Part shown: positions 1,885 through 42,125 of the stretch, one piece after another
How the letters are laid out: every line of letters starts with the position of its first letter
Position numbering within the stretch: position 1 is the first letter of the stretch
Source of the DNA: an uncultured Clostridia bacterium
Lineage (GTDB): Bacteria; Bacillota; Clostridia; Lachnospirales; CAMVHY01
Reading direction: 5' to 3'
Assembly: GCA_946415665.1 (NCBI GenBank)
Contig: CAMKTI010000002.1
Span: 1-42,125 of the forward strand
Length of the DNA stretch: 42,125 nt
Made by a program: the position numbers and the translations under genes
Notes under the pieces: model-generated
The model's input: only the letters and a program-made list of their open reading frames with translations
Told to the model about the DNA's origin: nothing
The model's database searches: none

Positions 1885-2664
1885 TTATTTTGTATTAATT
1901 TCTTCTCCTTTTTTATTCAATGTTTCTATTCTATTCTCTTTATCTCCGGCTTCTTTACTATTTTGTTTTTGCATTAGTGACTTATTTCTTGTGAGGTAAT
2001 CGCCTATTTTTCTAAACATTGGATAAAACATAGTGTTGTTATAGTTAATTGATTGCTTATTTTTGAAAATATTTTTACCGATAAGAATAGCAAAAATAAT
2101 TCTAAGTACAAGCGAAACCATAGTTGCCACTATCACCGGCACAGAAAATAGTGAAGCACTAGCAATTAAAGAATATACAATAAACCCACAAGCAGCTGTA
2201 TCAAAAATGCCGGCAATGATATTTGCAAAAAATTTCAGTTTAGGTTTTTGTTTTTGGATTGCAACCATAAAATAACCAATTCCAACCCAAGAAATAACGA
2301 AAATAAAACCTAAGACAACTTTGAAAATGTGCCAATTCGGAAAAGAAACCCAATGGTTGCTTTGTATATTGTTGTATCTATTAACTAAAATGCTATAACA
2401 ACTTCCACAATATTTTGATGTTTTTCTATTTTCATCGAGTGCATACATTGTCATTTCTTTATCGAGGTTATTAAACATTAATTTAATTACCTGTATAAAA
2501 TAATCATCATGTTTTTGCTTATCATTATGATCAATTTTTTTCAGTTCTTTTGGAATAAAATCAGCCTCGTATACACTTTGCCTCCAAAAACTGTCATCAT
2601 ATTCAAAAAAAACTTCAGCCCAATTTTGAAATTCATTTTCATCTGGGAGAAGCTTATTTTCCAT
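1885..2664 (-). CDS. orphan membrane protein, 259 aa (soluble N-domain of about 120 aa plus about 3 TM helices)
   Basis: Start moved to the ATG at 2664 (MENKLLPDENEF...), which has GGGAGG 7 nt upstream. The track start at 2805 reads through the promoter and tandem repeats. Hydrophobic segments include VVLGFIFVISWVGIGYFMV, IIAGIFDTAACGFIVYSLI and VPVIVATMVSLVLRIIFAILI. Confidence 0.7.
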   Translation of the reverse strand: MENKLLPDENEFQNWAEVFFEYDDSFWRQSVYEADFIPKELKKIDHNDKQKHDDYFIQVIKLMFNNLDKEMTMYALDENRKTSKYCGSCYSILVNRYNNIQSNHWVSFPNWHIFKVVLGFIFVISWVGIGYFMVAIQKQKPKLKFFANIIAGIFDTAACGFIVYSLIASASLFSVPVIVATMVSLVLRIIFAILIGKNIFKNKQSINYNNTMFYPMFRKIGDYLTRNKSLMQKQNSKEAGDKENRIETLNKKGEEINTK

Positions 2665-2722
2665 AAAATCTACCTCCCATAAAATAATTACAATAAAAAA
2701 TAATAATTTTAAACAAAAAAAT

Positions 2723-2767
2723 GACGTCATCCAACGCGACGTCATCCAACGCGACGTCATCCAACCC
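2723..2767. repeat. 3 x 15-bp tandem repeat GACGTCATCCAACGC (third unit ends ...AACCC), GC-rich, each unit with a GACGTC palindrome
   Basis: Read directly from the sequence. It lies between the -10 box at 2777-2782 and the start codon at 2664 of the minus-strand gene. Confidence 0.95.
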
Positions 2768-2776
2768 TCCCCAACA

Positions 2777-2805
2777 ATTCTAAAGCAAAATTTTTTATTT
2801 GTCAA
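2777..2805 (-). promoter_or_regulatory. sigma-A-type promoter, copy P1 of a conserved promoter cassette
   Basis: Minus strand reads CTTGACAAATAAAAAATTTTGCTTTAGAAT, which is TTGACA, 17 nt, TAGAAT. Confidence 0.65.
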
Positions 2806-2987
2806 GATCTTATCAAAATATTTTTATAAACTTTGTATACATTTTAATATGTATCTAGATTTTTTTGGTCGAATTAAAAATTGTCCGTGTAGTTGTTTGT
2901 ACTGTTTTTTATCGTTTTTGTCAATATTTTTTAGTAATGAGATAAAATTTAATGTGGGTAAAAATAATTGTTCGGAGGCAAATTTTT

Positions 2988-7782: not shown

Positions 7783-8193
7783 ATGTCTGTTGTAAAAGAA
7801 ATTATTAAGATTGAAAACGATAGTTTGTGCTTTGGAAATTATTTGCTAGAAGAAAAAAATAAGGTGGATAATTTTATTTTTGAAAATGATAAATATAAAG
7901 TTAAGACTTATAATAAAATTACTCGGTTGGAAAAAAATGATAAGTTGATAATGGAAACGATTCCGGGAAGTACGATTAGGAATTTTAATATGAGCGAAAA
8001 AAAAATTTATTTTAGTGCCGAAGGATTAGATGACACGCAAATAACTTTTGATTTGCAGGTAAACAAAAATTATGAAATAGAAATAGATAATATTTTGATC
8101 GGCACAGAAAAATCAAGTGCGTTTGGTAAGCTTTGTTTTAGCGTAAATTTGTCAGATACACCGAAAGATATTAAAATAAGGCTAGTTGATTAA
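7783..8193 (+). CDS. hypothetical protein, 136 aa
   Basis: Start moved to the ATG at 7783, 7 nt after GGAGG. It is co-directional with pepF and the HIT gene. No family was recognised. Confidence 0.6.
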   Translation: MSVVKEIIKIENDSLCFGNYLLEEKNKVDNFIFENDKYKVKTYNKITRLEKNDKLIMETIPGSTIRNFNMSEKKIYFSAEGLDDTQITFDLQVNKNYEIEIDNILIGTEKSSAFGKLCFSVNLSDTPKDIKIRLVD

Positions 8194-8201
8194 ATAAAAA
8201 G

Positions 8202-8238
8202 CTCCTGATAAACAAAAATTTACCGGGAGTTTTTTTTA
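8202..8238 (+). terminator. terminator after the pepF-HIT-hypothetical string
   Basis: Stem ctcctg / cgggag (one G-U pair) followed by a T8 run. Confidence 0.55.
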
Positions 8239-8267
8239 AATAATTTTTCGCGTTGAATCTAAATCTA

Positions 8268-9119
8268 GGCAACGTTTGCATAAAAAGCAAATCACAAATA
8301 AAAGCAAAGGATATGGTAAAAATAAAAATAAAATCAAGCTTATCATAACGAGTAAAAACTTTTTTAAAATATTTCAATCTGAGAAAATATCGCTAGGTAT
8401 TGTTGCGCTGTTTATAAAGTTTTTTATTATGGAGCTAAGGGATTTTACAATTTTTCTTTAGGTGGACAACTGTGAAGAAACAGTGATCCTTAGCTAAAAC
8501 TAAAGTTTTATCATTTTCGTAATCTCGGTCCATCAAGAGATAATTATTATTTTTGGAATATATGGATTCAATCAACCTTCTTCTTTCAGGATCATTGTGA
8601 AGGTTGCCGTGAGACAAGCAAAAAACCACTGGATAAGGAAATGTGCAATGTGGGCGTCACTTTGTCGTTAATCCACATTTTGAACATCCGATTTTTTGTT
8701 TCTGATTACTTTTATTCTTGTTTGCATATGGATTTACCTTTATGTTTGCACTATCAATAAAGAGTATATAATCTCCTTCATTAAACGCTTTTTGCTTTTT
8801 CATGGCTTTCAAAACAAGGTTTTAAAAAAAAGCAATAGCTTTTGGCAATCGTAACGTTCTTCGACTATCTACTAAATTTCATATAAACTGCATGTCACTT
8901 CCCATATTTTTTTGATAGCGACATACATTTGCAACCGTTCTCTATTATGTAAAACATTGTACACATGAATTTGTAGTTTGATACCTTTGCTGTTTTTTTG
9001 CTATCGATATTAATCCCTCTAGTTTTTTTATTGCGTTTTTGCCAATTTCGTATCTCTAACCTATCACTTTTTTCTTTTTACTCAATCCATTTTTATTTTT
9101 ATTTTATGTGAATGATACC
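8268..9119 (-). mobile_element. IS5-family element type A, copy 1, with decayed transposase
   Basis: Fragments read ...LLMDRDYENDKTLVLAKD... and ...KKVFTRYDKLDFIF... in different frames. The ends, ggcaacgtttgcataaaa and ttttatgtgaatgatacc, are related to the copy-2 IRs. Confidence 0.8.
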
Positions 9120-9472
9120 TAATTACTTTTGAGGTAAAACAACTGAGAATCGATTTAAACGCTTCTGGTTTTATTTTGTAATGTTGCTAAACAAACACAG
9201 AGGCAGAGGATAAATTTGGCGCTGCAGCAAATGCATTAATGATTTCATTTGTTAAATTATTGCTTTCTATACCTATAATTGTTTTAACTATCATACGGAA
9301 TAGCAGCTTCAATTCCAGACAATAAAAGTTTCTTAAGATATTTTGGATTCATATATGACTTTCTTGCAAATGGAATTTCTCTAATTACAAGGCTTGCTTT
9401 TGTTTCATTATAAGATTTCAAGGTGAAAGCGGGCACACATATGAAAGGCTCTGTCAGTCACTTATATCAACA

Positions 9473-9534: not shown

Positions 9535-12500
9535 TTAAATATCACTTTTTTCATCTTCAACTTCAGTAATTCCAGGCATTTGATTTGATTGATTTAATTC
9601 AGTACCTTTATTTTTAGATAGACCAAGAGTTTTCTTTTGATGTTTTTCATATCCACTATTTATATTTTTATTTGTATTTTTTGGTTCTTTACAGATTGTT
9701 TTATATTTAATTTTATATGCAATGACAACAAAACAAAAAAAAAGAATACATGATAACATCGCCAAAAACCAAAACGCTTTTATTATGCTAAAAATCAAAA
9801 CGGAAAAAGCAATAACAGTTAACGCGTATAAAACAATTTTTGCTATTAATTTAAGATATGAAATTTTTGTGGTTGATGTAAAAGTAGTTTTAGAATCTTG
9901 ATCTTGTAAATTTTTTTGTGCTGAATCAATCGGGATGAATGTATTATTTATTTTTAGTACATTGTTGTTTCTGTTATCATTTAAGCCGATTTTTGTTGTT
10001 GAATTTGCGTTTAACTCGCCTTTATTATTTGTTGGTACATATTCGATGTTTATTTTATTTTTTTCTTTGTTTTTGATTTTTTCATCTTTGGTTCCTGTGT
10101 TTTTGCTCGATTTATTTTGTTGTAACTCGGGTATATTTATATTTTTCTCAGTTAATACTTTTTCCAGTTTGCCAAAGTTGCCACAGAACTCAAAATGTTC
10201 AGACCAAGAAAAATTTTTTTGTTTAAAATATAATTTTTTCGCATAAGCTAAAATCTTGTTTACAAACTTTTCATGAGTCATATCTATATCATCTTCATCA
10301 TCCGCCTCATTATCCGCCTCATTTGGATCATTTTCGTTTTTATTTTTAAGATCAGCATTACTTACAAAAATAATCAACAATCCCAAAAAACAACCCACAT
10401 CCTCCGAGATATCTTTCTTGTTTTTATTTGCAAAACCATATTTCAAAAATTCTTTTATTTGATCAAAATTCCATTTGGAACCATCTTTTATTTTTTGACA
10501 ACATTTTAAAAGAGTTGTTAGTTTCAATTTATCTTTTGTACCTTTTTTTTGCCCAGATTTTTCATCTTTTTTCGCTAGAAAGCGTGTTAAAACTTTGAGC
10601 ATATCACTTATATCAACAGCGCCATCAACAATTAGATTTATGACAGAGTTCATAAAAGAGTCACAATTTGAAATATCAATGGGATTATCTACAACTTTAT
10701 TAATATTTTCCAAAAAAATCTTTATATCATCTGATGATTTAATTATACCAGGCGCAATATTTTTGATAAAAAGCTCTATAGATTTTGACTCGCGTACTCT
10801 CAACGCCTGTTTTAAATCTTTTTCATAACCGGCTTTGATCACTTTCTGTATACGTGTCGGATCAACTTGTTTACTTTTCAAAAATTCATCTATAAGAGTG
10901 TCACATGCTTTTGAAAGCTCATTTAAATCTTGATATTTTGTTGCTTTTTGCTGAACAAAAGATTCAAACTTTTCCTGAAGAGCAGAAAAATCAGCCTCAA
11001 GCTTATTGTTACCGGAATCGTTAAATCTTACCCATCTATGTTTGAGCGCATTCTTTAAGTCAGAGCTTTTAATTGTTCCTTTTAAAAATTCAACCTCAGG
11101 TATATTTTCAGCGACCCAATCAAAAACATTCTGTTCAAATTTTATATACTCAGTTTCGTTTTCATCGACACGGCTCAAAAAATACACCAACAAATCGCAA
11201 AATGCCTCAACATCATCTTTCTTATATTTTTTTTCTTTTTTACCATCTTTAGATTTTTTTGATTTAGTAAAACGATTTTTAGCAACCAATAAAAATTTAG
11301 TTATGTCGTCAAATCTATATTTTTGTCCAGTACCAATTTTATACCTTAGAAAACAACTAATATCACTGATAGATAAACTGTTATTTTTATCTAACTTCAA
11401 AAATTTATTCATATCACTCATATTCAACCTATAATCGATAATCAATAGACGAAATTTATTAGAAGTAATATCGATATCCTTGGTTTTTGACTTTATGAAT
11501 TCAATAAGTCCATTAAAATCATCAGATGACTTAATTATATTATTATTTATTTTTTCTAAAATTTTATCAAACGAATCCCGATTAAGTACCAGTTCTTTTT
11601 TTATATCTTCTGTAATATCTATACCATATTTTTTTATTTCATTACTAAAATTTAAAACAAATGTATCATATAGTTTATTCAATTCATGAATGCCAGCACA
11701 ACTATAACTATTTACGAGAGCCAGATCATTATATAACTTGTTTAAAATAATTTTATTAAACCACACAAAATAGTCAATTGCAACTTTGATATCGCTATCA
11801 TCAGAGTTTTTCTGGAAAACAAATTTTATACAATGTTCATTAAGATACTTTGAGAGTTTAACTCCGCTTTTGTGTTTATCGATTTCGCTTAATAAATGTT
11901 TGAATTTTGGCGTACTTTTGTTTATAGAAGCAAAAATTTTTTGAGCTATGCTAAATTCTTTAGCTATATCATCTGATGCGATATTATAATAGGAATGAAA
12001 AAGCACCCACCACATTAAATTAAACAAAGCCTCTACTTGTTTATTGTGATCTTTTTTTTTACTTTTTGCATCGGGTAATATAAAATTTTCCGCGCAAGAT
12101 AATAATTTTTCAAAACAACTATAATCTAATTCAAATTTGTGTGCACAATTTGAAAGCGTGGATAGAGATAATTTTTTTCCTTTGTTCAAATCAAGGACCC
12201 AAAATAAATTATCTTTTGTTAACGTTGATTTCTCACCAACTTTAAGCAAATCAATAATATAAGACATAAAATAGTCATCATAAAAATCATCTTTAAACTT
12301 TAGATCGTTTTTTGTGAAATTAATTAGCTTTTCTAATTTTTCTGATGAATCGATTGTTTCCTCTTCAAAAGCCTCTAAAAAATACAACGGGAAGTTATCA
12401 TCCGTTAATTCCCAACTATCTTCATATTTCTTAAACTGATCATCATAAAATTTTTTAACTTCATTTTCGTCCACCTTTTTGTCGCTTGTCTTGGATTGGA

Positions 12501-12687: not shown

Positions 12688-12772
12688 AAGCAAATACACC
12701 CCTAATCAAAATTTTTTCATGGCATCAAATAAAAACTAAAAATCGATTTTACATAACAAACAGTCGTTATTT

Positions 12773-12801
12773 ATATTAACACAAAACTTTTTATTTGTCA
12801 A
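12773..12801 (-). promoter_or_regulatory. sigma-A-type promoter, copy P2 of the conserved cassette
   Basis: Minus strand reads CTTGACAAATAAAAAGTTTTGTGTTAATAT, which is TTGACA, 17 nt, TAATAT. It lies about 85 nt upstream of the ATG at 12687. Confidence 0.65.
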
Positions 12802-12865
12802 GAGTTAATTCAAAAATTTTTGTAATAATCCCTATAGCAGAAATTATTTAGCTTTGTTTTTTTTA

Positions 12866-13617
12866 TATAGTGTCGATAAATTCAAAATCGAGAAGAAATA
12901 GAGATGGAAATAGCATGAACAAAAAAGGAAACACGGAAGGCAACAAAAGTTTTGAAATAGCGGATAGCAATGCCATGCCAACGCTTAAATTTAAAAAATA
13001 TATTTTAGACAATATGCCGCAAACAATATAAGTCAGGAGCAAAATTTTGTTTAGATTTCCAATTGCACTTTGGCGTAATAACTGTCTTAATGCCAAGTTT
13101 TTCAGCGTAATTAATAATTGGATTTATATCGTAAGCCAGATCACCAAACGAAATACTAAGCTTAATTTTCTGTATTAAATCTAGTGCAACACTGCAATCA
13201 GCCGTTGTTCCAGCGGTCGTTTTAGATTGATCATTCTTCCCTTTATTGCCACAATATTTTTTAACTCTATGCTTTGATTTAAGATTTTAGCCAATTTCTC
13301 CATTTTCCGTTTTTACCCATCTCAAAAATCTTTTATGTCCCGTATATCATTTCCCGTAGTCCGGCAGTAAATCTCTCCATAGTTATCCTGTCTTAAGATC
13401 CAAAATATTCCGTTTAAAAAATTTATATCATCTTTCTCCTCTCTTCCTTTCCTTTCTTTTCTTTCATATAATCTTTTGTTTTTTACCGCCTTTCATCTCT
13501 CATATCATTCCTTTGATATCTTTTTTTCCTGTTTTCTTACACATCTTTCCAGCTTCTTAGTTTCATTTCTTTTTTATTTCCTTATGCTTATATATCGTTT
13601 GATTTTATCTGCACTGT
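12866..13617 (-). mobile_element. IS5-family element type B (divergent copy D), decayed; boundaries approximate
   Basis: Hand translation gives ...NGIFWILRQDNYGEIY... and ...FKFKRWHGIAIRYFKTFVAF..., broken by stops and frameshifts. The left end tatagtgtcgata resembles the type-B ends. Confidence 0.6.
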
Positions 13618-13832
13618 TTAAAAGCAAAAAAGACATTCTCCACGATATATTGAAAGAAAACAAGGTTAAAAAAAATGCTTATGAGAACAAAAACAAAATT
13701 TAATTTATCAAACTAAACATATGCATATTTAATCTACAAAAATGAGACCAAAAGAGATTGTTGGCTTTATTTTTTTTACGGTAAAATAATTTTTGACGAT
13801 ATTAATTATTCTAAAACGATTTGAATTATCTC

Positions 13833-13861
13833 TTGATAAATAAAAAATTTTGTTTTAAAAT
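13833..13861 (+). promoter_or_regulatory. sigma-A-type promoter, copy P3 of the conserved cassette
   Basis: Plus strand reads CTTGATAAATAAAAAATTTTGTTTTAAAAT, which is TTGATA, 17 nt, TAAAAT. It lies about 80 nt upstream of the ATG at 13941. Confidence 0.6.
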
Positions 13862-13940
13862 TACCACTGGATAATGATGATTGCTTTTGGCAAATAATAA
13901 ATTTACTTTTAAAATAAACAAGGAGTATGTGAAATAAAAC

Positions 13941-15803
13941 ATGAACGAGAATAATTTAGAGTGTAATTTGGATTCTTTGAAGGATATTATTTTAGATGTG
14001 CTGCTTGCAATAATGATTGGAGATTGGACTGGATCCAATATAGAAAATTTTACGGATGGAAATGAACATTTATTAAAATGGGATTTGTACCATGTACAAA
14101 TGTTACCGCCGGCCGGAATAAAAAAACAACAAGACTATAATTTAAACTTAGCTCAAAATTGTATAGAAGATGATGGAGCAAGAGCGGCAAAAAATTATAT
14201 ATTGAAGGCACCAAATCGATTGACTGACGATACAATGTTTTCAATGGCACTTGCGCTTACATTAATTTTAAATAGAGAAAAATATAAGTTAGATCAGGAA
14301 TTTGACGAAAGGACTTATAAAAAAAATTTAGAAGAACTTATGGCTGATTATACTGAAATGCTAATGAAGTTTTATCGTTATTATAATTCAATAAGTGTTT
14401 GTGGACCAATGATGCATAAATTACTTAGTACAAAATTAGCTAACGTTCCGAAAAATAAATTAATAGAAACTATAAAAAAAATCAAACAACAAAACAAATT
14501 AAGCGGCGAACATTTTTGTGAGAGTTATGCAAACGGTTCGGCAATGCATAGTGCTCCCGGTGCATACGTTGCGCGAACTATGGAAGAATTAGATTTTATA
14601 ATTGAACAGACGGTTAAAAATACACATGATAATCCTGATGCGATAAAAGGCGCAAAAGTTGTTGCACAGTTTATTTTTTTGGCAAGGCTCGGATGGGACA
14701 AAGAAACGATAGCCAAATGGATAAGTTATAAATTTAAAGTTAAAGGCGAACACCCTTGCGCAAGTTATGATACAAGTTTAACACTTGAAGATATTAAAAA
14801 ATCATATTTTAGGACATTAGAATGCAAATACACAGTTCATCCGGCATTGATTGCCGTGCTTAAGGCAAATAGTTTTGAAGAAGCGGTAAATAATGCGAGA
14901 TCGATTGGAGGAGATTCTGATACTATTTGTGCAATTGCAGCACAAATGGCTGTGGCTCTTTGGCCAATTCCTAATAAATATAAAGATACGATAAAAAAAT
15001 ATTCGCTTGATGTCAAAACAGAGGGTACTCTCAAATTAGATCTTAAAAACCCAACAGCGCAAGAATTTTTATCTTGTAATCGCAATGGGAAAAATAATTT
15101 ATTTATAAAAATTAATGATGAATTTAATAAGAAATTTGTTGCACGTTATAAAAATAATGATTTGATAATTTGGCAGTTAAAAAATACGTTGTCGATTGTT
15201 AAAAATTTAGAAACCGATTTACAAAATATTGTGATTGAAGAAAAAAAGAATGATTTAATTGCTTTGCTTGATGGAATAGAAAAAGATTTGCAAAATAAGT
15301 TTGCTAAAGTAGGAAACAATATTTCAAAAGAAATAGCTGAGTTTGTGGAAAAAATAAAATCGAAAACAACAGAAATAAAAAATAAAGCAAAAACATTAAA
15401 TATCCAAGTAAACAATGATAATTGTATGGCAGATAATTATGTAACACCAGAAGGTTTTATCGAGGAAAAACCAAAAGTTATTTTTGTGCCGTATATTACA
15501 ATCCTAAAAAATGTTTTTGTACACGAACTCAACTTAGTAGTTATTTTTATTTGTGTGCTCGCGGTAATTATATGCGCAATAAAGGCATTATGGCTATTTT
15601 CCGGAATTTCAGCTGGTATATTTTTATTAATCATCATGATTGATTTTGTGGCAAGCATAATCAAATTTAAGTGTGTTAATAAAGAATATTATTTATCGCA
15701 AAATAACACTGATCAGAACTCTAAAACTTTAGAATTACCACCAAAAAATACAGTCGGAGAACAACATTTAAAAATAGATTTAGATTATAAAGAAAAAGAT
15801 TAA
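13941..15803 (+). CDS. ADP-ribosylglycohydrolase (ARH/DraG family) domain fused to a coiled-coil spacer and C-terminal TM hairpin, 620 aa
   Basis: ARH signature motifs are AIMIGDWTG (aa 23-31), LTDDTMF (aa 94-100), GSAMHSAPG, THDNPDAIKGA and GGDSDTICAIAAQMA (aa 323-337). TM helices fall at aa 528-575 (nt 15522-15665). Confidence 0.85.
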   Translation: MNENNLECNLDSLKDIILDVLLAIMIGDWTGSNIENFTDGNEHLLKWDLYHVQMLPPAGIKKQQDYNLNLAQNCIEDDGARAAKNYILKAPNRLTDDTMFSMALALTLILNREKYKLDQEFDERTYKKNLEELMADYTEMLMKFYRYYNSISVCGPMMHKLLSTKLANVPKNKLIETIKKIKQQNKLSGEHFCESYANGSAMHSAPGAYVARTMEELDFIIEQTVKNTHDNPDAIKGAKVVAQFIFLARLGWDKETIAKWISYKFKVKGEHPCASYDTSLTLEDIKKSYFRTLECKYTVHPALIAVLKANSFEEAVNNARSIGGDSDTICAIAAQMAVALWPIPNKYKDTIKKYSLDVKTEGTLKLDLKNPTAQEFLSCNRNGKNNLFIKINDEFNKKFVARYKNNDLIIWQLKNTLSIVKNLETDLQNIVIEEKKNDLIALLDGIEKDLQNKFAKVGNNISKEIAEFVEKIKSKTTEIKNKAKTLNIQVNNDNCMADNYVTPEGFIEEKPKVIFVPYITILKNVFVHELNLVVIFICVLAVIICAIKALWLFSGISAGIFLLIIMIDFVASIIKFKCVNKEYYLSQNNTDQNSKTLELPPKNTVGEQHLKIDLDYKEKD

Positions 15804-31183: not shown

Positions 31184-31423
31184 TACACTGTTCCGCGTGT
31201 TTAATTTTTTATAGAAAACAAAACAAGGGAAAATCGCCTGATTTCATGAATCAAGCTCGCTCCACAAAAATTTTCCGCTCGAAAATTTTTTTTCAACGGT
31301 AACTTTTTGTATCATAGCTCCAATTCACAATCTGTTCATTGTATCAAAAAAAAAACAAAGTGCAAAATTTTTTTTCGCAGACAAATTTTTTATCCTAAAT
31401 TTTTACAAACGAAAACTGTTTTA

Positions 31424-31452
31424 ATAACAAATAAAAAGTTTTGTTTTTAGAT
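31424..31452 (+). promoter_or_regulatory. copy P4 of the conserved promoter cassette (degenerate -35)
   Basis: Plus strand reads AATAACAAATAAAAAGTTTTGTTTTTAGAT. A perfect TATAAT also lies at 31466-31471. Confidence 0.4.
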
Positions 31453-31537: not shown

Positions 31538-32794
31538 ATGCATAAGCAAAATGAAAATAAATCTCAAGATTATAATGAACAACCTTCGGTTTATATTAGA
31601 TCGTTATATTTCGAAGGTAATGGATACGAAAATAGAAATTTAAGATTAAAAATACGAGAATTAGAGATATACAATGAACAGCTAAAAAAAGTTACCTCAA
31701 AAACAATAAACGAAAATCAACAATTGTTTGATGAAATAGATAAAAAAAATGATGAAATACGTAAAAAAGGTTGGGAATACTTGGAATCATATTCGAAATA
31801 CTACAAGGAGAGTCTTAAAAACTACCACTTAACAGATGAAATAGGTCGTTTAAAACAAGAACTGAAAGATGCGAAATCAGAATTAGAAAAAACAACAAAA
31901 GAACTGAATGAACTTAAAGAAAACCATGAAAATACAAAAAAAGAAGCGGAACATAAAGACAAGAAAATAAAAGAACAAGAAGAAGAACTTAATCAAACAA
32001 AATTAGAATTAAACGAGACAAACAAAACAAATAAAAATCAAACAGTAGAAATTAACGAGTTAAAAGAAAAACTGCAGAATAAAGAAAATGAACTGAACAA
32101 TGCGAAATCAGAATTAGAAAAAACAACAAAAGAACTGAATGAACTTAAAGAAAACCACGAAAAAAACCTAGAAGACCTGGAAAGCAAAACAAATAAAATT
32201 AGCGCGTTAGAAAAATCAGTGAAAGAGCAGTCAAAAATGTTTTTGTTGGTATCAGCTAACACTAACGTTACGGCACGAAAATTGTCTTTAATTTATTTTT
32301 TTGCATGGGCGTTGAGCTGGCTCTCCACTGGTTGTAAAAGTTATGTTGATCGAATTCGTACGATCAGAAACTTAAATCAAGAATTTAATGCCCTGAGAGA
32401 AAATTTAGATCTTCAAAGCACTGGTGTTGATTTTATCGAAAACGATGAAAATAAATTAATAAATAGTAATGCTACTGGCGAAAATATAGAAGATAATATA
32501 TTTAACATTTTGGATAATTTTTTGCCACAACTTGAAGGTGAGTTGTTTGATAAATACGCTTGCATTTATTGGAATATGTTGCATTTGTATAATCATAATA
32601 CGAATAAAATATATAACGCATTGCAAGAAACTCATATACAAATTCCGTCATTTAGAATGTTAAAATCCAAAATAGAACTAAAAATACATAAAAATCTTCA
32701 AACAAATAAAAACAAAGATACTAAACTTACAGATTTATTTTCAGACAATATAAAAATGGATACATGTAGGCAAATTTTTAACAATAAAAATTAA
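31538..32794 (+). CDS. orphan coiled-coil protein, 418 aa, with a central hydrophobic segment
   Basis: GAGG-type RBS before the ATG. Heptad-rich Lys/Glu/Asn region at aa 40-230 with a duplicated AKSELEKTTKELNELKENHE block. Hydrophobic segment is LSLIYFFAWALSWLSTG. Confidence 0.75.
   Translation: MHKQNENKSQDYNEQPSVYIRSLYFEGNGYENRNLRLKIRELEIYNEQLKKVTSKTINENQQLFDEIDKKNDEIRKKGWEYLESYSKYYKESLKNYHLTDEIGRLKQELKDAKSELEKTTKELNELKENHENTKKEAEHKDKKIKEQEEELNQTKLELNETNKTNKNQTVEINELKEKLQNKENELNNAKSELEKTTKELNELKENHEKNLEDLESKTNKISALEKSVKEQSKMFLLVSANTNVTARKLSLIYFFAWALSWLSTGCKSYVDRIRTIRNLNQEFNALRENLDLQSTGVDFIENDENKLINSNATGENIEDNIFNILDNFLPQLEGELFDKYACIYWNMLHLYNHNTNKIYNALQETHIQIPSFRMLKSKIELKIHKNLQTNKNKDTKLTDLFSDNIKMDTCRQIFNNKN
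31870..31926 (+). repeat. 57-bp perfect direct repeat, copy 1 (inside the coiled-coil gene)
   Basis: tgcgaaatcagaattagaaaaaacaacaaaagaactgaatgaacttaaagaaaacca is identical to 32101-32157. Confidence 0.9.
32101..32157 (+). repeat. 57-bp perfect direct repeat, copy 2
   Basis: Identical to 31870-31926 and in frame (231 bp apart, equal to 77 codons). Confidence 0.9.
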
Positions 32795-32897
32795 GTAACC
32801 GGACTAATAAATATTTTAAGCAGGGATTTGAATTTTCACTTCGATTATAAAATTCACAAAAAAACGACTGCCGAAAAGCAATCGTTTTTTATTAAAT

Positions 32898-33527
32898 AGT
32901 GTCTACATGAAAAAAAAATAAAAGAATAACAAAGATATAAAGATACAACGGAAATAAACAGAAGCGATAAAACCATCGAGCGCTTTAGTGTATCTGTTGG
33001 CAATACCGCGCCAACGTTTAAAAGCAGGAAAAGTATTATCGATAATATAAATGTGCCTAAAGAGATAAAGTTTACGGTGAGACTACTGTCTTTTTTCTTC
33101 AAAGCCATTTATAAGCACATTATTCAAGTCTGTTGCGTTTTTGAGGAATAACTGATTTTATATTTCGTTTTGCTATATAATACAAAACTTCGTTGGTATT
33201 ATAAGTTTTGTCTGCAAATAATAATTCTGCATTGAGATTTTTGATCAAGTAAATACCTTTTTTGCAATCGACTCATGATTCTTCTATAACGATAAATTTT
33301 ACAGTCACTTTGCGCTCATTGACTGATAAGTATACTTTAGAATTAAATCTTCTTTTGTTTTTTTGATATAGCCCGATTTTCGCCGCAAGCGACAGCTGTA
33401 TGCTGATGATTCTTTACATAAATTAAACTTATCACTTTTTTATTCTTTTCCATTATACCTTAATTTTATAGATCATTTTTTTCTTGTTTCGTTGCTCGTT
33501 TTTCTAGTGTAGACAGTTGTAGACAGT
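32898..33527 (-). mobile_element. IS5-family element type B, copy B, internally deleted and decayed; boundaries approximate
   Basis: An alternative frame of ORF 32854-33108 carries an ...RWRGIANRY...-like motif. The ends are agtgtctacatg and a tandem tgtagacagt-tgtagacagt. It is homologous to 34254-35151. Confidence 0.65.
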
Positions 33528-34234: not shown

Positions 34235-34253
34235 TAGCAAAAAAAAATTTTTT

Positions 34254-35151
34254 TAGATAGTATTTACACAGTATTTACACGAGGAAAAATAAAAAACAAA
34301 AAGTAAATCAAAACAATATAAAGATACAACACACAAAAACAGAAGTAATGGAGACATCCAGAGTTGTTTAGCATAACGAGTGGCAATACTGCGCCAGCGT
34401 TTAAAAACAAGAAAAATATTCTCAATAACATATCGAAAACAGTAAAGTGTACAATTGTAATTATATTGTTCAAGTTTGTTGCATTTTGGAGGAATAACTG
34501 ATTTTATATTTCGTTCAGCTATATAAGACGAAATTTCGTTAGTATCATAAGTGCGATCCGTAAGGACTAAATTTGTATCGACATTTTTTAGCAAGTTAAT
34601 ATCTTCTTTACAATCGGCCCGTGTTTCTTCTGTAACGATGAATTTTATGGGTTTTCCGTGTACATTGATGGCTAAATGTGTTTTCGCATTGAATTGATAT
34701 AGCCCCGATTTTCACCGCGAGCCCTAGCTGTATGCTGATGTACTTTTACATAATTCGAGTCGATAATTAGCCATTCAAAATTTATATCACATTTTAATAT
34801 TTTAAATATTTTTTTCAGACGCCTCTCATAGCCATCGAATAAATCTTCGATGAACGGTCCGCTTTTCATAATCAAACTGCAAATCCACCAACGAAAATTC
34901 TATTTTAAGTATCCAAACAACCGCACTGATAAATTTTCGATCATCTTTGGCTATAACTTAATGTTGTCCAACTTGACTTGTCACGCGTAATTTTATTTGC
35001 TTCCGCTCTGCATTGCTTATATCAAATTTGTAATGCATCCTTTGCTTCGTTTTTATTTTTGCTCCTTTTTTATTCCTCTCCATTACATTTTATTTTATAT
35101 ATTATTTTTTCCATCATCTCATTGCTCGTTTTTTTCGCGTAGACATCATCT
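34254..35151 (-). mobile_element. IS5-family element type B, copy C, near full length but with broken transposase
   Basis: Fragments read ...RKFISAVVWILK..., ...LIIDSNYVKVHQHTARARGENRGY..., ...VLTDRTYDTNEI... and ...FKRWRSIATRYAKQL... in different frames. The left end has a tandem agtatttacac x2. Confidence 0.8.
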
Positions 35152-35152
35152 G

Positions 35153-35985
35153 GGTAGCGTTCACATAAAAAGCAAGTCAAAAATAAAAACAAGGGAACTG
35201 GTAAAAATAAGAATAGAATCAAGCTTACCATGACGAGTAAAAACTTTTCTAAAACGTTTCAATCTCAAGAAATATCGCTCGATATTATTGCGTTGTTTAT
35301 AAAGTTGTTTATCATAACTCCAAGGCAACTTACGATTTTTTTTTAGGTGGAACAACTGTCTTAAACCCGTGATTCTTAGCTAAAGCTAAAGTTTTATCAT
35401 CTTCGTAAGCTCGGTTCATCAGGAGATAATTATTATTTTTGAAATATATGGCCTTCTTCCTTCGGGAGAATTGTGAGAATTGCTAGGAGACAAACGAAAA
35501 TCCACTGGACATGAAGATGTGAAAAATAAATACAACTTGGTTGTCAGGTCCCTTTTGAACGTACGATGCTTTGTTTCTGATTGTTTTTATTCTTGTTTGC
35601 ATCTGGACTTACCTTTATGCTTGTACTATCAATAAAGAGTATATAATCCTCTTCATTAAGCAGTTTTTGTTTCTCTATAGCTTCTAAAATAAAGGTTTTA
35701 AAGAAAAAAAACAACAGCTTTGACAATCGTACCGTTTTGACCATCTACTAAATTTTATATAAACCGTGTGCCAATTTCCATATTCTTTTGATAATGTCCT
35801 CCATTTGCAACCATTCTCTATTATGTAAAGATTGCACACATAAATTTTTAGTCTGATATCTTCATCGGATTCCTCGCTATCGACATTAATTCCTCTAGCT
35901 TCTTATATTGTGTTTTTGTAAGTTTCATATCTCCATCTTATCACTTTTTTTGCTCAATCTATTTTTATTTTATGTGAACGCTACC
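35153..35985 (-). mobile_element. IS5-family element type A, copy 2, with perfect 18-bp IRs and decayed transposase
   Basis: The IRs are ggtagcgttcacataaaa and ttttatgtgaacgctacc. The ORF begins MKLTKTQYKKLEELMSIARNPMKISD* and is then broken by multiple stops. The C-terminal fragment reads ...YKQRNNIERYFLRLKRFRKVFTRHGKLD.... Confidence 0.85.
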
Positions 35986-36168
35986 TAAAATAGAAAAGAG
36001 ACATGCTTTGAGGCATGTTTTTTTTGCAAAAATTTTTATACACAGAAATAATAAATTTAGCTTGTAAGAAAAATATTTTTAACCAAAAATCAACCAGTTT
36101 ATATTTTTGTAACATAAAACAAAATAAATTATCTTACGAAGAAAGGACATAAAAAAAAGGCAAAACCC

Positions 36169-36889: not shown

Positions 36890-37222
36890 ATATATATGTG
36901 AAAATAGTGATGACAATAGCTGGCGAGAAGATCGTGCAAGCTGTGTATAGCCAGAAATAGAAGGCGATATTATTTGTAAAACTGTGGATGAGTGTTCCGG
37001 GAATCTGAAGAGTGGTGATTTGTAATACCGTCCATTTGCAATCATTATTTATTATATAAGGTATTGCACACATGGATTCGTAGTTTGATATTTTCACCAG
37101 TTTCCTTGCTATCGGTATTAATCCCTCTACCCTTTTTATATTGTGTTTTTGTAAGTTGCATATCTCTATCTTGTCAATTTTTTTCTTTAGTCGACCGATT
37201 TTTATTTTATGTGAATGCTACC
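36890..37222 (-). mobile_element. IS5-family element type A, copy 3, a 5' fragment only; left boundary approximate
   Basis: Right end ttttatgtgaatgctacc. The N-terminal transposase fragment reads ...MKISNYESMCAIPYIINNDCKWTVLQITTLQIPGT.... The sequence aligns with 35800-35985. Confidence 0.7.
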
Positions 37223-37282
37223 TAGTCAACAATATTTTTTTGCCATGAAAAATAATCAAATATATTTTTTTCTTTTGGAGTG

Positions 37283-40117: not shown

Positions 40118-41542
40118 TTAGCCTTTTTGTTCTTCGATGACAATGATCTCTTCTTCTTTTTCTTCGTTCTGGACTTTGATTTTACCTTTGAGGGTGTTGA
40201 TGTTGTTATTATTTTTATACCCACCTTCTTCGATATCGATATCTTCTTTTCCATCATAGATATTTTTGTTCTTGTTTTCTTCTTCATTTTCTGTGCTATA
40301 TTTTATTCCGTTTAAGTTGTTTTTTATTGTTTTCTCCTGGTTTTGTTCATGCTTCTTCCAAAACAAAATCACAAGTGCAAAAATACACACTACTGCACTC
40401 CCGCCAGGGATTGTCATAGACAAAATGGTTACCGTTTTTGTTGCCGCCGCTGGCCAAAATGCAACCACAAAATAATTCACTGCTGATCCACCGGCGATTA
40501 ATACTCCCAAACCGCTACCAGTACCAAAAATCCAAAGCCATTTTTTTATGCCATTTGATGATTTGATCTCCAAAGGTTCATTACACTTACAAGGCTTTAA
40601 TGCGACGCTACCATTTTCTACTACTAAATTTCCTTTTGCATCTCCCAAGAAACCTAAAAAATCATTAAATTCTTGATCACTACACTTAATATTGCCAATA
40701 TTTTCAAAGTAGTCTCTGATGTTTTCAATTAACCCTATTGCTTTAAAAAATTCTTTGTTATTCTGAATGCAAGCACTGATACTAGTATAATTAACAACAT
40801 TCCTCGCTACAGTATTGAAATAAGGTTGATTACCATAATTATTAAACGCTCGGTACATAATTTTACAGATCTTTATAAAATCATGATCTGAAGCCAATTC
40901 TTTTTTGTTTTTGCTTTCTAGTAGTTCGGAAGCATTTTTTATTGTTGTGCTTGGTTCAAATTTTTCTAATTTCGTTTTTTGTAACAGTTTAGACATCGCC
41001 AATGCGTTGATAATCGATCTCTCTAGATCTATTGGAATTACTAATTTATTTAATTGTTTTTGTATATCGTATTTTTTATCTCGCGGTGATTTTTTTGCAT
41101 TTGTATTATTTATATTACCATTTGGTAATTCTTCTACATTTATCTCCATTTTTTTCTCGAACTCTTGCAAAGATTCCTTTAGCGATGTCAATGAACAATT
41201 TTCAATGGTAACTTTATTTTTATCAAGAATATGAGGACAAAGTTTACAAACCAAATTATATCTAAAACTCAAAACTATATCTAGATTCATTGCCTCACTA
41301 TTAAAATCAATTCCAAAATTGTTTTGGACGTCTTCTGTATTATTGTTGTCTTCTATATTCTCAACATTAGGCTCAAGCTTTTTTTTTATCGCTTTTGCAT
41401 ACCCTTGCAGTAATTTATTTCCTTTCTCATTTTGGTTCAAATACTTAATAAAAGTTTCTAAATCTGTTTTTTCTGTATTTGCCTTTTCTTTCTCTGCTAT
41501 TTTTTCTTCTATCATGTTCTCTTCCATAATTTTATTCTCCAT
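40118..41542 (-). CDS. orphan 474-aa protein with C-terminal Gly-rich TM cluster and Lys/Glu-rich tail
   Basis: Hydrophilic N-terminus MENKIMEENMIEEK with no signal peptide. The TM cluster at aa 333-396 (nt 40355-40546) begins IKKWLWIFGTGSGLGVLIAGG. Confidence 0.8.
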   Translation of the reverse strand: MENKIMEENMIEEKIAEKEKANTEKTDLETFIKYLNQNEKGNKLLQGYAKAIKKKLEPNVENIEDNNNTEDVQNNFGIDFNSEAMNLDIVLSFRYNLVCKLCPHILDKNKVTIENCSLTSLKESLQEFEKKMEINVEELPNGNINNTNAKKSPRDKKYDIQKQLNKLVIPIDLERSIINALAMSKLLQKTKLEKFEPSTTIKNASELLESKNKKELASDHDFIKICKIMYRAFNNYGNQPYFNTVARNVVNYTSISACIQNNKEFFKAIGLIENIRDYFENIGNIKCSDQEFNDFLGFLGDAKGNLVVENGSVALKPCKCNEPLEIKSSNGIKKWLWIFGTGSGLGVLIAGGSAVNYFVVAFWPAAATKTVTILSMTIPGGSAVVCIFALVILFWKKHEQNQEKTIKNNLNGIKYSTENEEENKNKNIYDGKEDIDIEEGGYKNNNNINTLKGKIKVQNEEKEEEIIVIEEQKG

Positions 41543-41680: not shown

Positions 41681-41710
41681 TTTAGTCTAACACAAAAAAA
41701 AACACCTGTC
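41681..41710 (-). promoter_or_regulatory. candidate promoter of the 474-aa gene
   Basis: Minus strand reads TTGACA, an 18-nt spacer, then TAGACT. The spacer end TTTTGTGT resembles P2. Confidence 0.35.
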
Positions 41711-42012
41711 AAGTGTTTTTAAGTATTTTTTTTGAAATTCGAGGGGGTAGAGCCTTTTAACAAGAGAAGCTTAAGTGATTTTATTTCTAATTTTAAATAA
41801 AAGTTAAACTCATAAATTAAAAATCTAAGATTTTTTTGGAGGTAAAAATAGAAAAACGATTTTTTTTATACCGTCTTTTTTATACAATCTTCTTGCAAAA
41901 ACAAAACAAGTGTTTGTTTTCTTCTCAAAACAGCAACTTGATTTTCTTGCATGAAAGAGTAATTGTACCACAAAAATATTAATTTCAACTCTTATTTTTT
42001 TCACATCAATTA

Positions 42013-42125
42013 GGTAGCGTTCACATAAAGTAAAAATAGATTGCCCCAAAAGAAAAAAGTGATAAGATAAAAATATGAAACTGGAAAAAACACAATATAA
42101 AAAAACTAGAGGGATTAATGCCTAT
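42013..42125 (+). mobile_element. IS5-family element type A, copy 4, 5' end only, continuing beyond the window
   Basis: IR ggtagcgttcacataaa at 42013. The transposase ATG at 42075 reads MKLEKTQYKKTRGINAY.... Confidence 0.75.

Follow-up and report, generated by a model that had tools for sequence, protein, structure and literature searches.

Promoter reuse, as described for the putative mobile promoters (PMPs) of prokaryotes (Matus-Garcia, Nijveen & van Passel 2012, NAR 40:10032; commentary in PMC3575422), is the closest described phenomenon, as outlined in these sources, to the one presented here. According to the criteria quoted in the commentary (PMC3575422), PMPs have a minimum of 80% identity across 50 nt or more, lie between -150 and -50 of the start codon and precede non-paralogous genes. 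We analysed a 42,125-nt stretch of DNA from an uncultured Clostridia bacterium (contig CAMKTI010000002.1; the whole stretch is referred to as the window), in which a promoter module, with copies named P1 to P4, recurs before genes for orphan proteins. The likeness to PMPs, as quoted there, consists in near-identical 5' regulatory DNA before non-paralogous genes in one genome, shared among related genomes. P1 and P3 have 54 nt at 80% identity, which reaches the quoted cut-off, and P1 and P2 have 49 nt at 80%, just below the length limit; the -35 boxes were localised 108-141 nt ahead of the start codons. The downstream proteins are mutually non-homologous, in agreement with the quoted non-paralogy, since an all-against-all BLASTP of 11 of them gave a single related pair (those of loci L009 and L017). 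The published families, as the commentary presents them, are mostly pairs of unknown age, whereas the module forms a multi-member family that can be dated as pre-speciation. It also differs from them in a conservation peak on the -35 box and the proximal spacer and in a consistent cargo of orphan, C-terminally anchored proteins; cross-species conservation at the level of the spacer and a coherent, fast-evolving cargo of this kind are its less common features.

The comparisons described below make it rather probable that these copies are descendants of one sigma-A-type module, which was propagated before non-homologous orphan genes and whose -35-proximal spacer is under selection.

Two further groups of known systems can be compared with the module. 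Variable surface-protein families, such as vlp, vsp and vsa of Mycoplasma and those with the upstream homology boxes of Borrelia, have conserved 5' expression cassettes, and resemble the module in having a conserved promoter and leader before rapidly diversifying membrane or surface proteins, as well as homopolymer or tandem-repeat tracts in the 5' region. However, their genes are paralogues that share a signal peptide, whereas the coding regions behind the module are unrelated, and the homopolymer length in the module spacer is invariant in 14 of 14 copies. The other group comprises the UP element, with the Estrem/Gourse consensus AAAWWTWTTTTNNNAAA, and the 'extended' Gram-positive sigma-A promoters compiled by Graves & Rabinowitz and by Helmann. 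The sequence AAAAAtATTTTGATAAG localised 5' of the -35 box of the module closely fits the UP consensus, although the UP-like tract is 1-2 nt nearer to the -35 box than in the E. coli consensus, and the arrangement TTGACA-17-TAnAAT with a T-rich, TG-containing -16 region is that of the 'extended' promoters. We know of no generic promoter model that demands an invariant AATAAAAAAT beside the -35 box.

Copies of the module in the window

The degenerate 21-mer CTTGAYAAATAAAAARTTTTG was found with 0 mismatches at 2786-2806 (-), 12782-12802 (-) and 13832-13852 (+). When up to 3 mismatches were allowed it gave 4 matches against 0.15 expected, a number that was reached in 0 of 100 shuffles. The fourth match, with 3 mismatches, was P4 at 31423-31443 (+), which has the exact 18-mer ACAAATAAAAAGTTTTGT in common with P2. 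The parts of each copy are as follows.

2777..2834, minus strand: P1 module, with an UP-like tract ATAAAAATATTTTGATAAG at about 2809-2829, the -35 box TTGACA at 2800-2805, the spacer AATAAAAAATTTTGCTT at 2783-2799 and the -10 box TAGAAT at 2777-2782
12769..12831, minus strand: P2 module, with the UP-like tract CAAAAATTTTTGAATTA, the -35 box TTGACA at 12796-12801, the spacer AATAAAAAGTTTTGTGT at 12779-12795 and the -10 box TAATAT at 12773-12778
13804..13866, plus strand: P3a module (P3 in the text), with the UP-like tract CTAAAACGATTTGAATTA, the -35 box TTGATA at 13833-13838, the spacer AATAAAAAATTTTGTTT at 13839-13855 and the -10 box TAAAAT at 13856-13861
13884..13920, plus strand: P3b, a degenerate tandem second copy, TTGGCA-aataataaatttacttt-TAAAAT, 54 nt 3' of P3a
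31423..31452, plus strand: P4 relic, which retains the spacer block ACAAATAAAAAGTTTTGT and has a degraded -35 (ATAACA) and -10 (TAGATA/TTAGAT), upstream of a gene for a 418-aa coiled-coil protein (31538-32794)

P1, P2 and P3 ranked near the top of the sigma-70-like sites found in the first 20 kb. In a sigma-70/sigma-A hexamer test with a spacing of 17 ± 1 nt, P1 matched 11 of 12 positions, P2 10 of 12 with a TG, and P3 10 of 12, and all three spacers had 17 nt. The scores against the module profile were 49.5 bits for P1, 44.2 for P2, 46.2 for P3, 14.2 (E 0.002) for P4 and 12.5 for the tRNA promoter. No acceptable -35 (AATAAC/ATAACA) or -10 hexamer was found for P4 in the hexamer test; since it scores only about 14 bits and has no good -35 or -10, it is therefore regarded as a decayed relic rather than a working fourth copy. 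P3b and P3a form a 37-nt direct repeat with 78% identity, P3b being promoter-like (10 of 12) and having 14 of 17 spacer positions in agreement with the module consensus. The upstream flank of P3a, of about 75 nt, matches the copies L009 and L017 of a metagenome-assembled genome (MAG) described below.

The alignment of all copies gave a module of about 55 nt (55-65 nt), composed of an A7T4G UP-like tract, TTGACA, the 17-nt spacer AATAAAAAATTTTGTTT and TAnAAT; the group-weighted consensus was TaTAAAAAAATTTTGATTAc.TC-TTGACA-AATAAAAAATTTTGTTT-TAaAAT. The upstream tract repeats the A6T4G motif of the spacer 28 nt away. Phase variation by spacer length was considered and rejected, because the A6 and T4 tract lengths were identical in all 14 copies. 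The initial annotation had proposed a cassette of about 30 nt in four sites that align nearly base for base, all with sigma-A-like -35 and -10 spacing. The alignment and spacing were borne out for P1, P2 and P3, with 0 mismatches, 10 to 11 of 12 hexamer positions and 17-nt spacers, but not for P4, with its 3 mismatches, 14 bits and poor hexamers, and the cassette proved to be longer than proposed.

Conservation profile

The identity of the alignment columns between paralogous types of the module was distributed as follows.

-35 hexamer: 0.96-1.0
Spacer bases 1-11: 0.94-0.98
Spacer bases 12-17: 0.67-0.82
-10 hexamer: 0.70-0.78
20 nt upstream of the -35 box: 0.53-0.67
Further-out flanks: 0.28-0.41 (background)

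The same profile was obtained when the comparison was limited to a second set of copies, localised upstream of protein homologues and found independently of the motif. Uniformly recent copying is disfavoured because the conservation peaks at the -35 box and the proximal spacer, and a convergent optimum is disfavoured because flanks are shared. Old common descent together with purifying selection centred on TTGACAAATAAAAAAT appears to fit these profiles best.

Occurrence in related DNA and age of the copies

Scanning of 248.5 kb of lineage DNA with the module profile gave 20 copies that reached 29 bits or more. Of these, 14 were unique, and every copy was localised upstream of an orphan gene. 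No copy was found in this DNA upstream of ribosomal, tRNA, murG, pepF, glyS, fba, pgsA, dnaG/sigA or ppdK genes. Thus, the possibility raised in the initial annotation, that the motif might be equally common before housekeeping genes, was not borne out in these 248.5 kb. It had also been stated there that the genes behind the module are exactly the lineage-specific ones, and in this respect it has to be corrected, because the following orphan gene uses a promoter that does not belong to the module.

40118-41542, minus strand: gene for a 474-aa C-terminally anchored orphan protein, with its promoter at about 41682-41712, CTTGACA-ggtgtttttttttgtgt-TAGACT

This promoter has the same -35 and 3' spacer style as the module, without the 5' spacer block, and the protein has a C-terminal double membrane segment.

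In a species-level scan with the 21-mer, covering one genome per species (596 Gb), 17 loci were found. Six exact matches sharing extended flanks belonged to one MAG (CAMVHY01, 'uncultured Clostridia', 26-29% GC), and the remaining loci were single matches in unrelated ordinary promoters. A seventh copy of this MAG, 2 kb from another one, was detected with the profile. Two sister-species groups also had the module, as did contigs from rumen metagenomes; 3-8 more core-bearing contigs each were obtained from the rumen metagenomes and from one metatranscriptome, and several of the metagenome copies match positions 13833-13863 only (the core from -35 to +2), with unlike flanks. Scanning of the metagenome_contigs collection with the 21-mer gave only chance matches in unrelated ordinary promoters; the viral_contigs collection had no relatives, with at most 20 bits against the profile, and BLAST against plasmids and against phages gave no match at all.

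The orthologues of the genes behind P1 and P2 (here w259 and w1050, after the length of their products) were used to date the copies. Orthologues of w1050 in another species group were found in a pgsA-gene-pynp context (L033-L037 and L073) and carried aTTGACAAATAAAAAATTTTGTGTCAATAT together with the P2-type flank and 5' untranslated region (UTR), with scores of 29-30 bits for L033, L034, L036, L037 and L073. Orthologues of w259 were found in conserved divergent synteny with murG (L044-L049), with a P1-type module and leader of 39-41 bits. Because each type is represented in other species by orthologues with flanks of their own, the P1 and P2 paralogues must be older than those species. Over the divergence of these species MurG was 93-94% identical, with 0.70 at 4-fold sites, and the w259 and w1050 proteins were 46-54% and 41-49% identical, respectively.

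P3 has a different history. The gene behind it encodes an ADP-ribosylglycohydrolase (ARH) fusion, whose orthologues (72-91% identity) adjoin ppdK without a module, and their upstream DNA and first codons differ from those in the window. The local alignment of the upstream regions of L038 and L042 with that of the window scored 113, within the range of the shuffles (mean 92, maximum 121), and a P3b-like relic that we had considered upstream of ARH in L038/L042 was dropped on account of this score. The absence of P3 from the orthologous ARH genes of related strains implies that it was acquired, and new module placements apparently still occur, as P3 shows. A distant ARH-hairpin homologue (L074, 35% identity) has cTTGACAAATAAAAtaataggtgaTAATAT and retains the -35-proximal block alone.

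The window has 29% GC and contains the S10/spc/alpha ribosomal-protein operons, a tRNA operon, murG, pepF and the spoIIAA-spoIIAB-sigF operon, and therefore comes from a spore-forming low-GC Firmicute. The sequencing runs that contain the window were gut metagenomes of sheep, cattle and goats. Exact look-up of the window ARH and S10 proteins gave no identical record. At the gathering score, the covariance models of Rfam matched only 4 tRNAs in the whole window, and the leader and the module matched no family.

Proteins encoded downstream of the module

The genes downstream of P1, P2 and P3 are as follows.

1885..2664, minus strand: w259, gene for a 259-aa multi-pass membrane orphan, downstream of P1; translation from an in-frame ATG further 5', at 2760, would yield 291 aa
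9535..12687, minus strand: w1050, gene for an orphan of 1050 aa that has a double hydrophobic helix near its C-terminus (aa 942-995), downstream of P2
13941..15803, plus strand: ARH fusion, with an ADP-ribosylglycohydrolase domain, a coiled region and a C-terminal double hydrophobic helix at aa 519-580, downstream of P3

Among 5.8 billion proteins, w259 had only 3 homologues, with 46-54% identity, and w1050 had only five; neither of them matched a Pfam family. The ARH domain matched Pfam PF03747 with an E of 2.9e-19. According to their hydropathy, most of the proteins encoded behind the module have at their C-terminus a double hydrophobic segment of 50-60 aa and then a charged tail. For the possibly homologous C-terminal anchors of the w1050 and ARH families, hhalign gave a probability of only 23%. 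A similar hairpin pattern was noted in w1050, ARH and a distant ARH homologue (P0014), consisting of a first transmembrane helix, I-K-A-x-W-[FL], a second transmembrane helix and I-K-[YF]-K (window 9535-9860 and 14060-14220).

Within one species, the w1050-family gene had 84-91% DNA identity compared with 95-99% for the flanking fba, pgsA and pynp genes. The length of its product varied between 1009 and 1399 aa within the species (L033/L036/L037; for example L033:10001-14200), so that the gene is hypervariable behind a conserved promoter and 5' UTR. One w259 orthologue (L045:6657-7464, also found in L046-L049, that is, in five contigs from different samples) was split into open reading frames (ORFs) of 43 and 232 aa by a frameshift at the A8 run CCGAAAAAAAAGAG; the gene is possibly a pseudogene, or the tract is prone to slippage. 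Sub-threshold Pfam matches to ubiquitin (E 0.006, residues 10-40) and to RasGAP (E 0.004) were obtained with MAG proteins encoded behind the module, the genes in question starting 98 nt (L017) and 242 nt (L008) past the end of the motif. These matches are hints of eukaryote-like domains.

The leader of P1

The region between P1 and w259 contains a leader with repeated units.

2713..2772, minus strand: P1 leader, with the Shine-Dalgarno (SD)-like sequence GGGGAGGG at 2765-2772, three tandem 15-nt units of the TTGGATGACGTCGCG type (plus-strand positions 2723-2767) and a U7 run at 2715-2721

P1 and the MAG copies L004, L009, L011 and L017 constitute a leader subclass, characterised by TAATAT-n-GGGGAG, 5-9 nt, (A)TGACGTY and T7-9. 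In the P1 leader the palindromic GACGTC cores pair to form a stem of 11 bp with a 7-nt loop, directly 5' of the U7 run (2747-2719 on the minus strand, terminator scan), so that the leader has the G+C-containing stem-loop and U-run of an intrinsic terminator; its RNA fold had a minimum free energy of -18.4 kcal/mol. The leaders with two units (L045 and L017) folded at -10 to -12 kcal/mol, and those with a single unit did not fold. The number of units was 3 in the window, 2 in sequencing run X1, 2 in L045 and 1 in L044. In L017 (L017:7320-7360) the two units have a 16-nt period, and those of L045 are localised at L045:6590-6630. Two or more GACGTC units of 15-16 nt followed by the U-run would form a terminator-like hairpin, and the strains have one, two or three units. 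Because the unit number varies and only leaders with at least two units form the hairpin, the leader may tune read-through, and its units may constitute a copy-number-dependent attenuator. Each unit of the window leader also reads MTSRW in frame with the 259-aa ORF, which explains why gene callers predict a 291-aa product.

GGGGAG was found 8-14 nt past the -10 box and was followed by a start codon in P1, L011, L044 and L045, but not in L004, L009 and L017. A conserved leader peptide (MT[LS]FFCL...), which was restricted to the P1 orthologues and L011, was therefore discarded as a general feature. Lying a few bases past the predicted start, GGGGAG could be an mRNA stabiliser of the STAB-SD type or the ribosome site of a short leader ORF. 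The STAB-SD of cry3A from Bacillus thuringiensis is a stabiliser at the 5' end of the mRNA (Agaisse & Lereclus 1996; review PMC4113751). As described in the review, it resembles the SD-like, G-rich GGGGAG/GGGAGG near the predicted 5' end of the module transcripts, and L004, L009 and L017, in which no start codon follows the G-rich motif, agree with it in this respect. In contrast, an ATG follows 5-6 nt later in P1, L011, L044 and L045, where the motif perhaps serves as the normal ribosome site of a short leader ORF beginning with MT[LS]FFCL.

Discussion

The module would belong to a clade of uncultured, spore-forming Bacillota of the ruminant gut with 28-30% GC, and the genes behind it seem to be rapidly evolving and lineage-restricted, mostly encoding proteins with a pair of C-terminal membrane helices. 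With its UP-like tract, consensus -35 box, 17-nt spacing and near-consensus -10 box, it is predicted to be a strong sigma-A promoter that gives one common input to unrelated genes. The conservation of TTGACAAATAAAAAAT would then reflect purifying selection for a sequence-specific protein contact, most simply with a common repressor or activator whose site overlaps the promoter, or else a holoenzyme-specific contact. The initial annotation had proposed a regulator site of this kind or, as the other option, a recent copy-paste of the promoter. The conservation profile, with 94-100% at the -35 box and spacer bases 1-11 and 70-78% at the -10 box, is compatible with the former, and the copying itself is supported by the extended similarity, the non-homologous genes and the absence of P3 from the ARH orthologues, although for P1 and P2 the term 'recent' does not hold. 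Comparison by eye with the motifs of CodY, Spo0A (TTTGTCAAG against TTTGTCRAA), Fur, ComK, CtsR, the sporulation sigma factors and TcdR-type factors gave none that was convincing.

Several observations weigh against descent of a selected module, and many of them would be expected if it were a generic, near-optimal 'extended' sigma-A promoter of an AT-rich genome with only an incidental link to orphan genes, which we consider unlikely. The tRNA promoter has the same layout (an A7T9 tract, TTGACAAA, TTTTGTGT and a -10 box), and the spacer identity to the module consensus is 11 of 17 for this promoter and 13 of 17 for the one at 1419-1447, against a background mode of 5-6 of 17. Since other good promoters share 11-13 of the 17 positions, the T-rich, TG-containing 3' half of the spacer (TTTTGTTT) has to be regarded as generic, and the A/T-tract style likewise appears to be generic in the host genome. 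AAAAAWTTTTG is enriched throughout the window (14 sites, 4.2 expected) and co-oriented with genes. The exact 20-mer is also present in ordinary TTGACA-17-TATAAT promoters of unrelated bacteria and phages, which means that no special factor is needed for promoter action. In the same sense, orthologous intergenic regions are conserved as a whole (about 88-90%), so that the spacer does not stand out when orthologues alone are compared; retrieval of the MAG copies relied on the 21-mer itself, which introduces an ascertainment bias; and the single metatranscriptome that contains the locus (run X11) consists of fragmented contigs without direction. A generic promoter does not account, however, for scores of 29-52 bits being restricted to orphan genes while housekeeping promoters reach at most 12.5 bits in about 250 kb. 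Only the module has the 5' spacer block AATAAAAAAT, which is missing from ten other strong intergenic promoters, so that the earlier statement that other good promoters do not share the conserved spacer is correct for this block and not for the 3' half. Furthermore, the similarity spans 25 nt 5' of the -35 box, and in one subclass also the leader, which a convergent optimum leaves unexplained.

Duplication or gene conversion so recent that the copies had no time to diverge, making selection on the spacer unnecessary, is in our opinion quite improbable. It agrees with the presence of P3 in the window and its absence from the orthologous ARH loci of related strains, with the tandem duplication of P3 as P3b, with the activity of insertion sequences (ISs) in the lineage, where ARH is truncated by one of them in L038/L039, and with the rearrangement of the locus, which contains the following IS remnant.

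12951..13178, minus strand: remnant of a gene for an IS5-like DDE transposase, in the interval that separates P2 from the divergently oriented P3

On the other hand, the P1 and P2 orthologues with type-specific flanks in other species place the split of the paralogues before those species, and the flanks at background (0.28-0.41) around a core of 0.94-1.0 are the opposite of the uniform similarity that young copies should have. We think it very unlikely that the module represents one end of a small mobile element that carries an outward promoter, such as a miniature inverted-repeat transposable element (MITE), a Correia-like element or an IS end, or that it is an invertible phase-variation switch. 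IS-related sequences that precede the module by 60-160 nt at P2, L008 and L004, weak A/T-rich inverted repeats around P1 (24 nt at 71%), the UP tract and spacer being mutual inverted and direct repeats around the -35 box, and the sharp limits of similarity at 13833 and 13863 in several metagenome copies would be in keeping with such an origin. Nevertheless, no terminal inverted repeat or target-site duplication was common to the copies in seven loci, and in most copies the similarity fades gradually at both ends. Regarding inversion, only weak A/T-rich inverted repeats were found; 20 of 20 copies face their own gene, and no strand-switch joints were seen in any contig, although contigs can hide minor orientations. 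The plasmid, phage and viral collections gave no match beyond chance promoters.

If descent of the copies from one selected module is true, this would be a case of compact and datable promoter reuse, in which the module stays nearly the same from species to species and there is a quick turnover of the proteins that it drives. The 16-nt block could then be used to search an uncultured rumen lineage for its co-regulated 'accessory membrane proteome' and for the regulator, and the module with its leader could serve as a natural promoter of high strength in low-GC Firmicutes. No general principle would be altered, as promoter duplication and capture are already documented. A more far-reaching extension, which we regard as doubtful, would be a dedicated regulon read at TTGACAAATAAAAAAT by a lineage-specific DNA-binding factor or sigma variant. 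Its products would form a large, rapidly diversifying repertoire of proteins with bilobed hydrophobic hairpins at the C-terminus, resembling the chlamydial Inc proteins, some with eukaryote-like domains (ADP-ribosylglycohydrolase, and weakly ubiquitin- and RasGAP-like), that mediate an intimate interaction of a rumen Firmicute with eukaryotic cells or phages, and the leader units would act as a heritable expression dial.

Minor observations

The IS remnant at 12951-13178 matched the window IS ORF at 34253-34594 in tblastn (42% over 76 aa, E 1.5e-17), and this ORF matches DDE_Tnp_1/DDE_Tnp_1_2. IS5-like DDE-transposase copies or fragments, 79-90% identical and with frameshifted ORFs, were found at 8171-9124, 32854-33450, 34253-35990, 37033-37224 and 42008-42125. 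In the MAG locus L004 the end of this IS is present 60 nt 5' of the module, and related sequence was found upstream of L008. The ARH orthologue P0011 (449 aa; L038:10001-11350 and L039:3308-5183) is truncated before the membrane hairpin by an IS insertion; its last 26 residues or so match the window IS-end ORF at 34997-35233, and a DDE_Tnp_1 fragment follows.

Thirteen of the 14 AAAAAWTTTTG sites of the window were on the strand of the local gene, often shortly 5' of start codons or in promoter regions (for example 5376, 12707, 30071, 31363 and 39929, all on the minus strand), and this sequence possibly acts as a general UP-like or leader signal in the host genome. Finally, the 418-aa coiled-coil gene 3' of P4 has an internal direct repeat of 115 nt (31854-31968 and 32085-32199) with 82% identity, the start points lying 231 nt apart, which encodes a repeated 'AKSELEKTTKELNELKENHE' segment.

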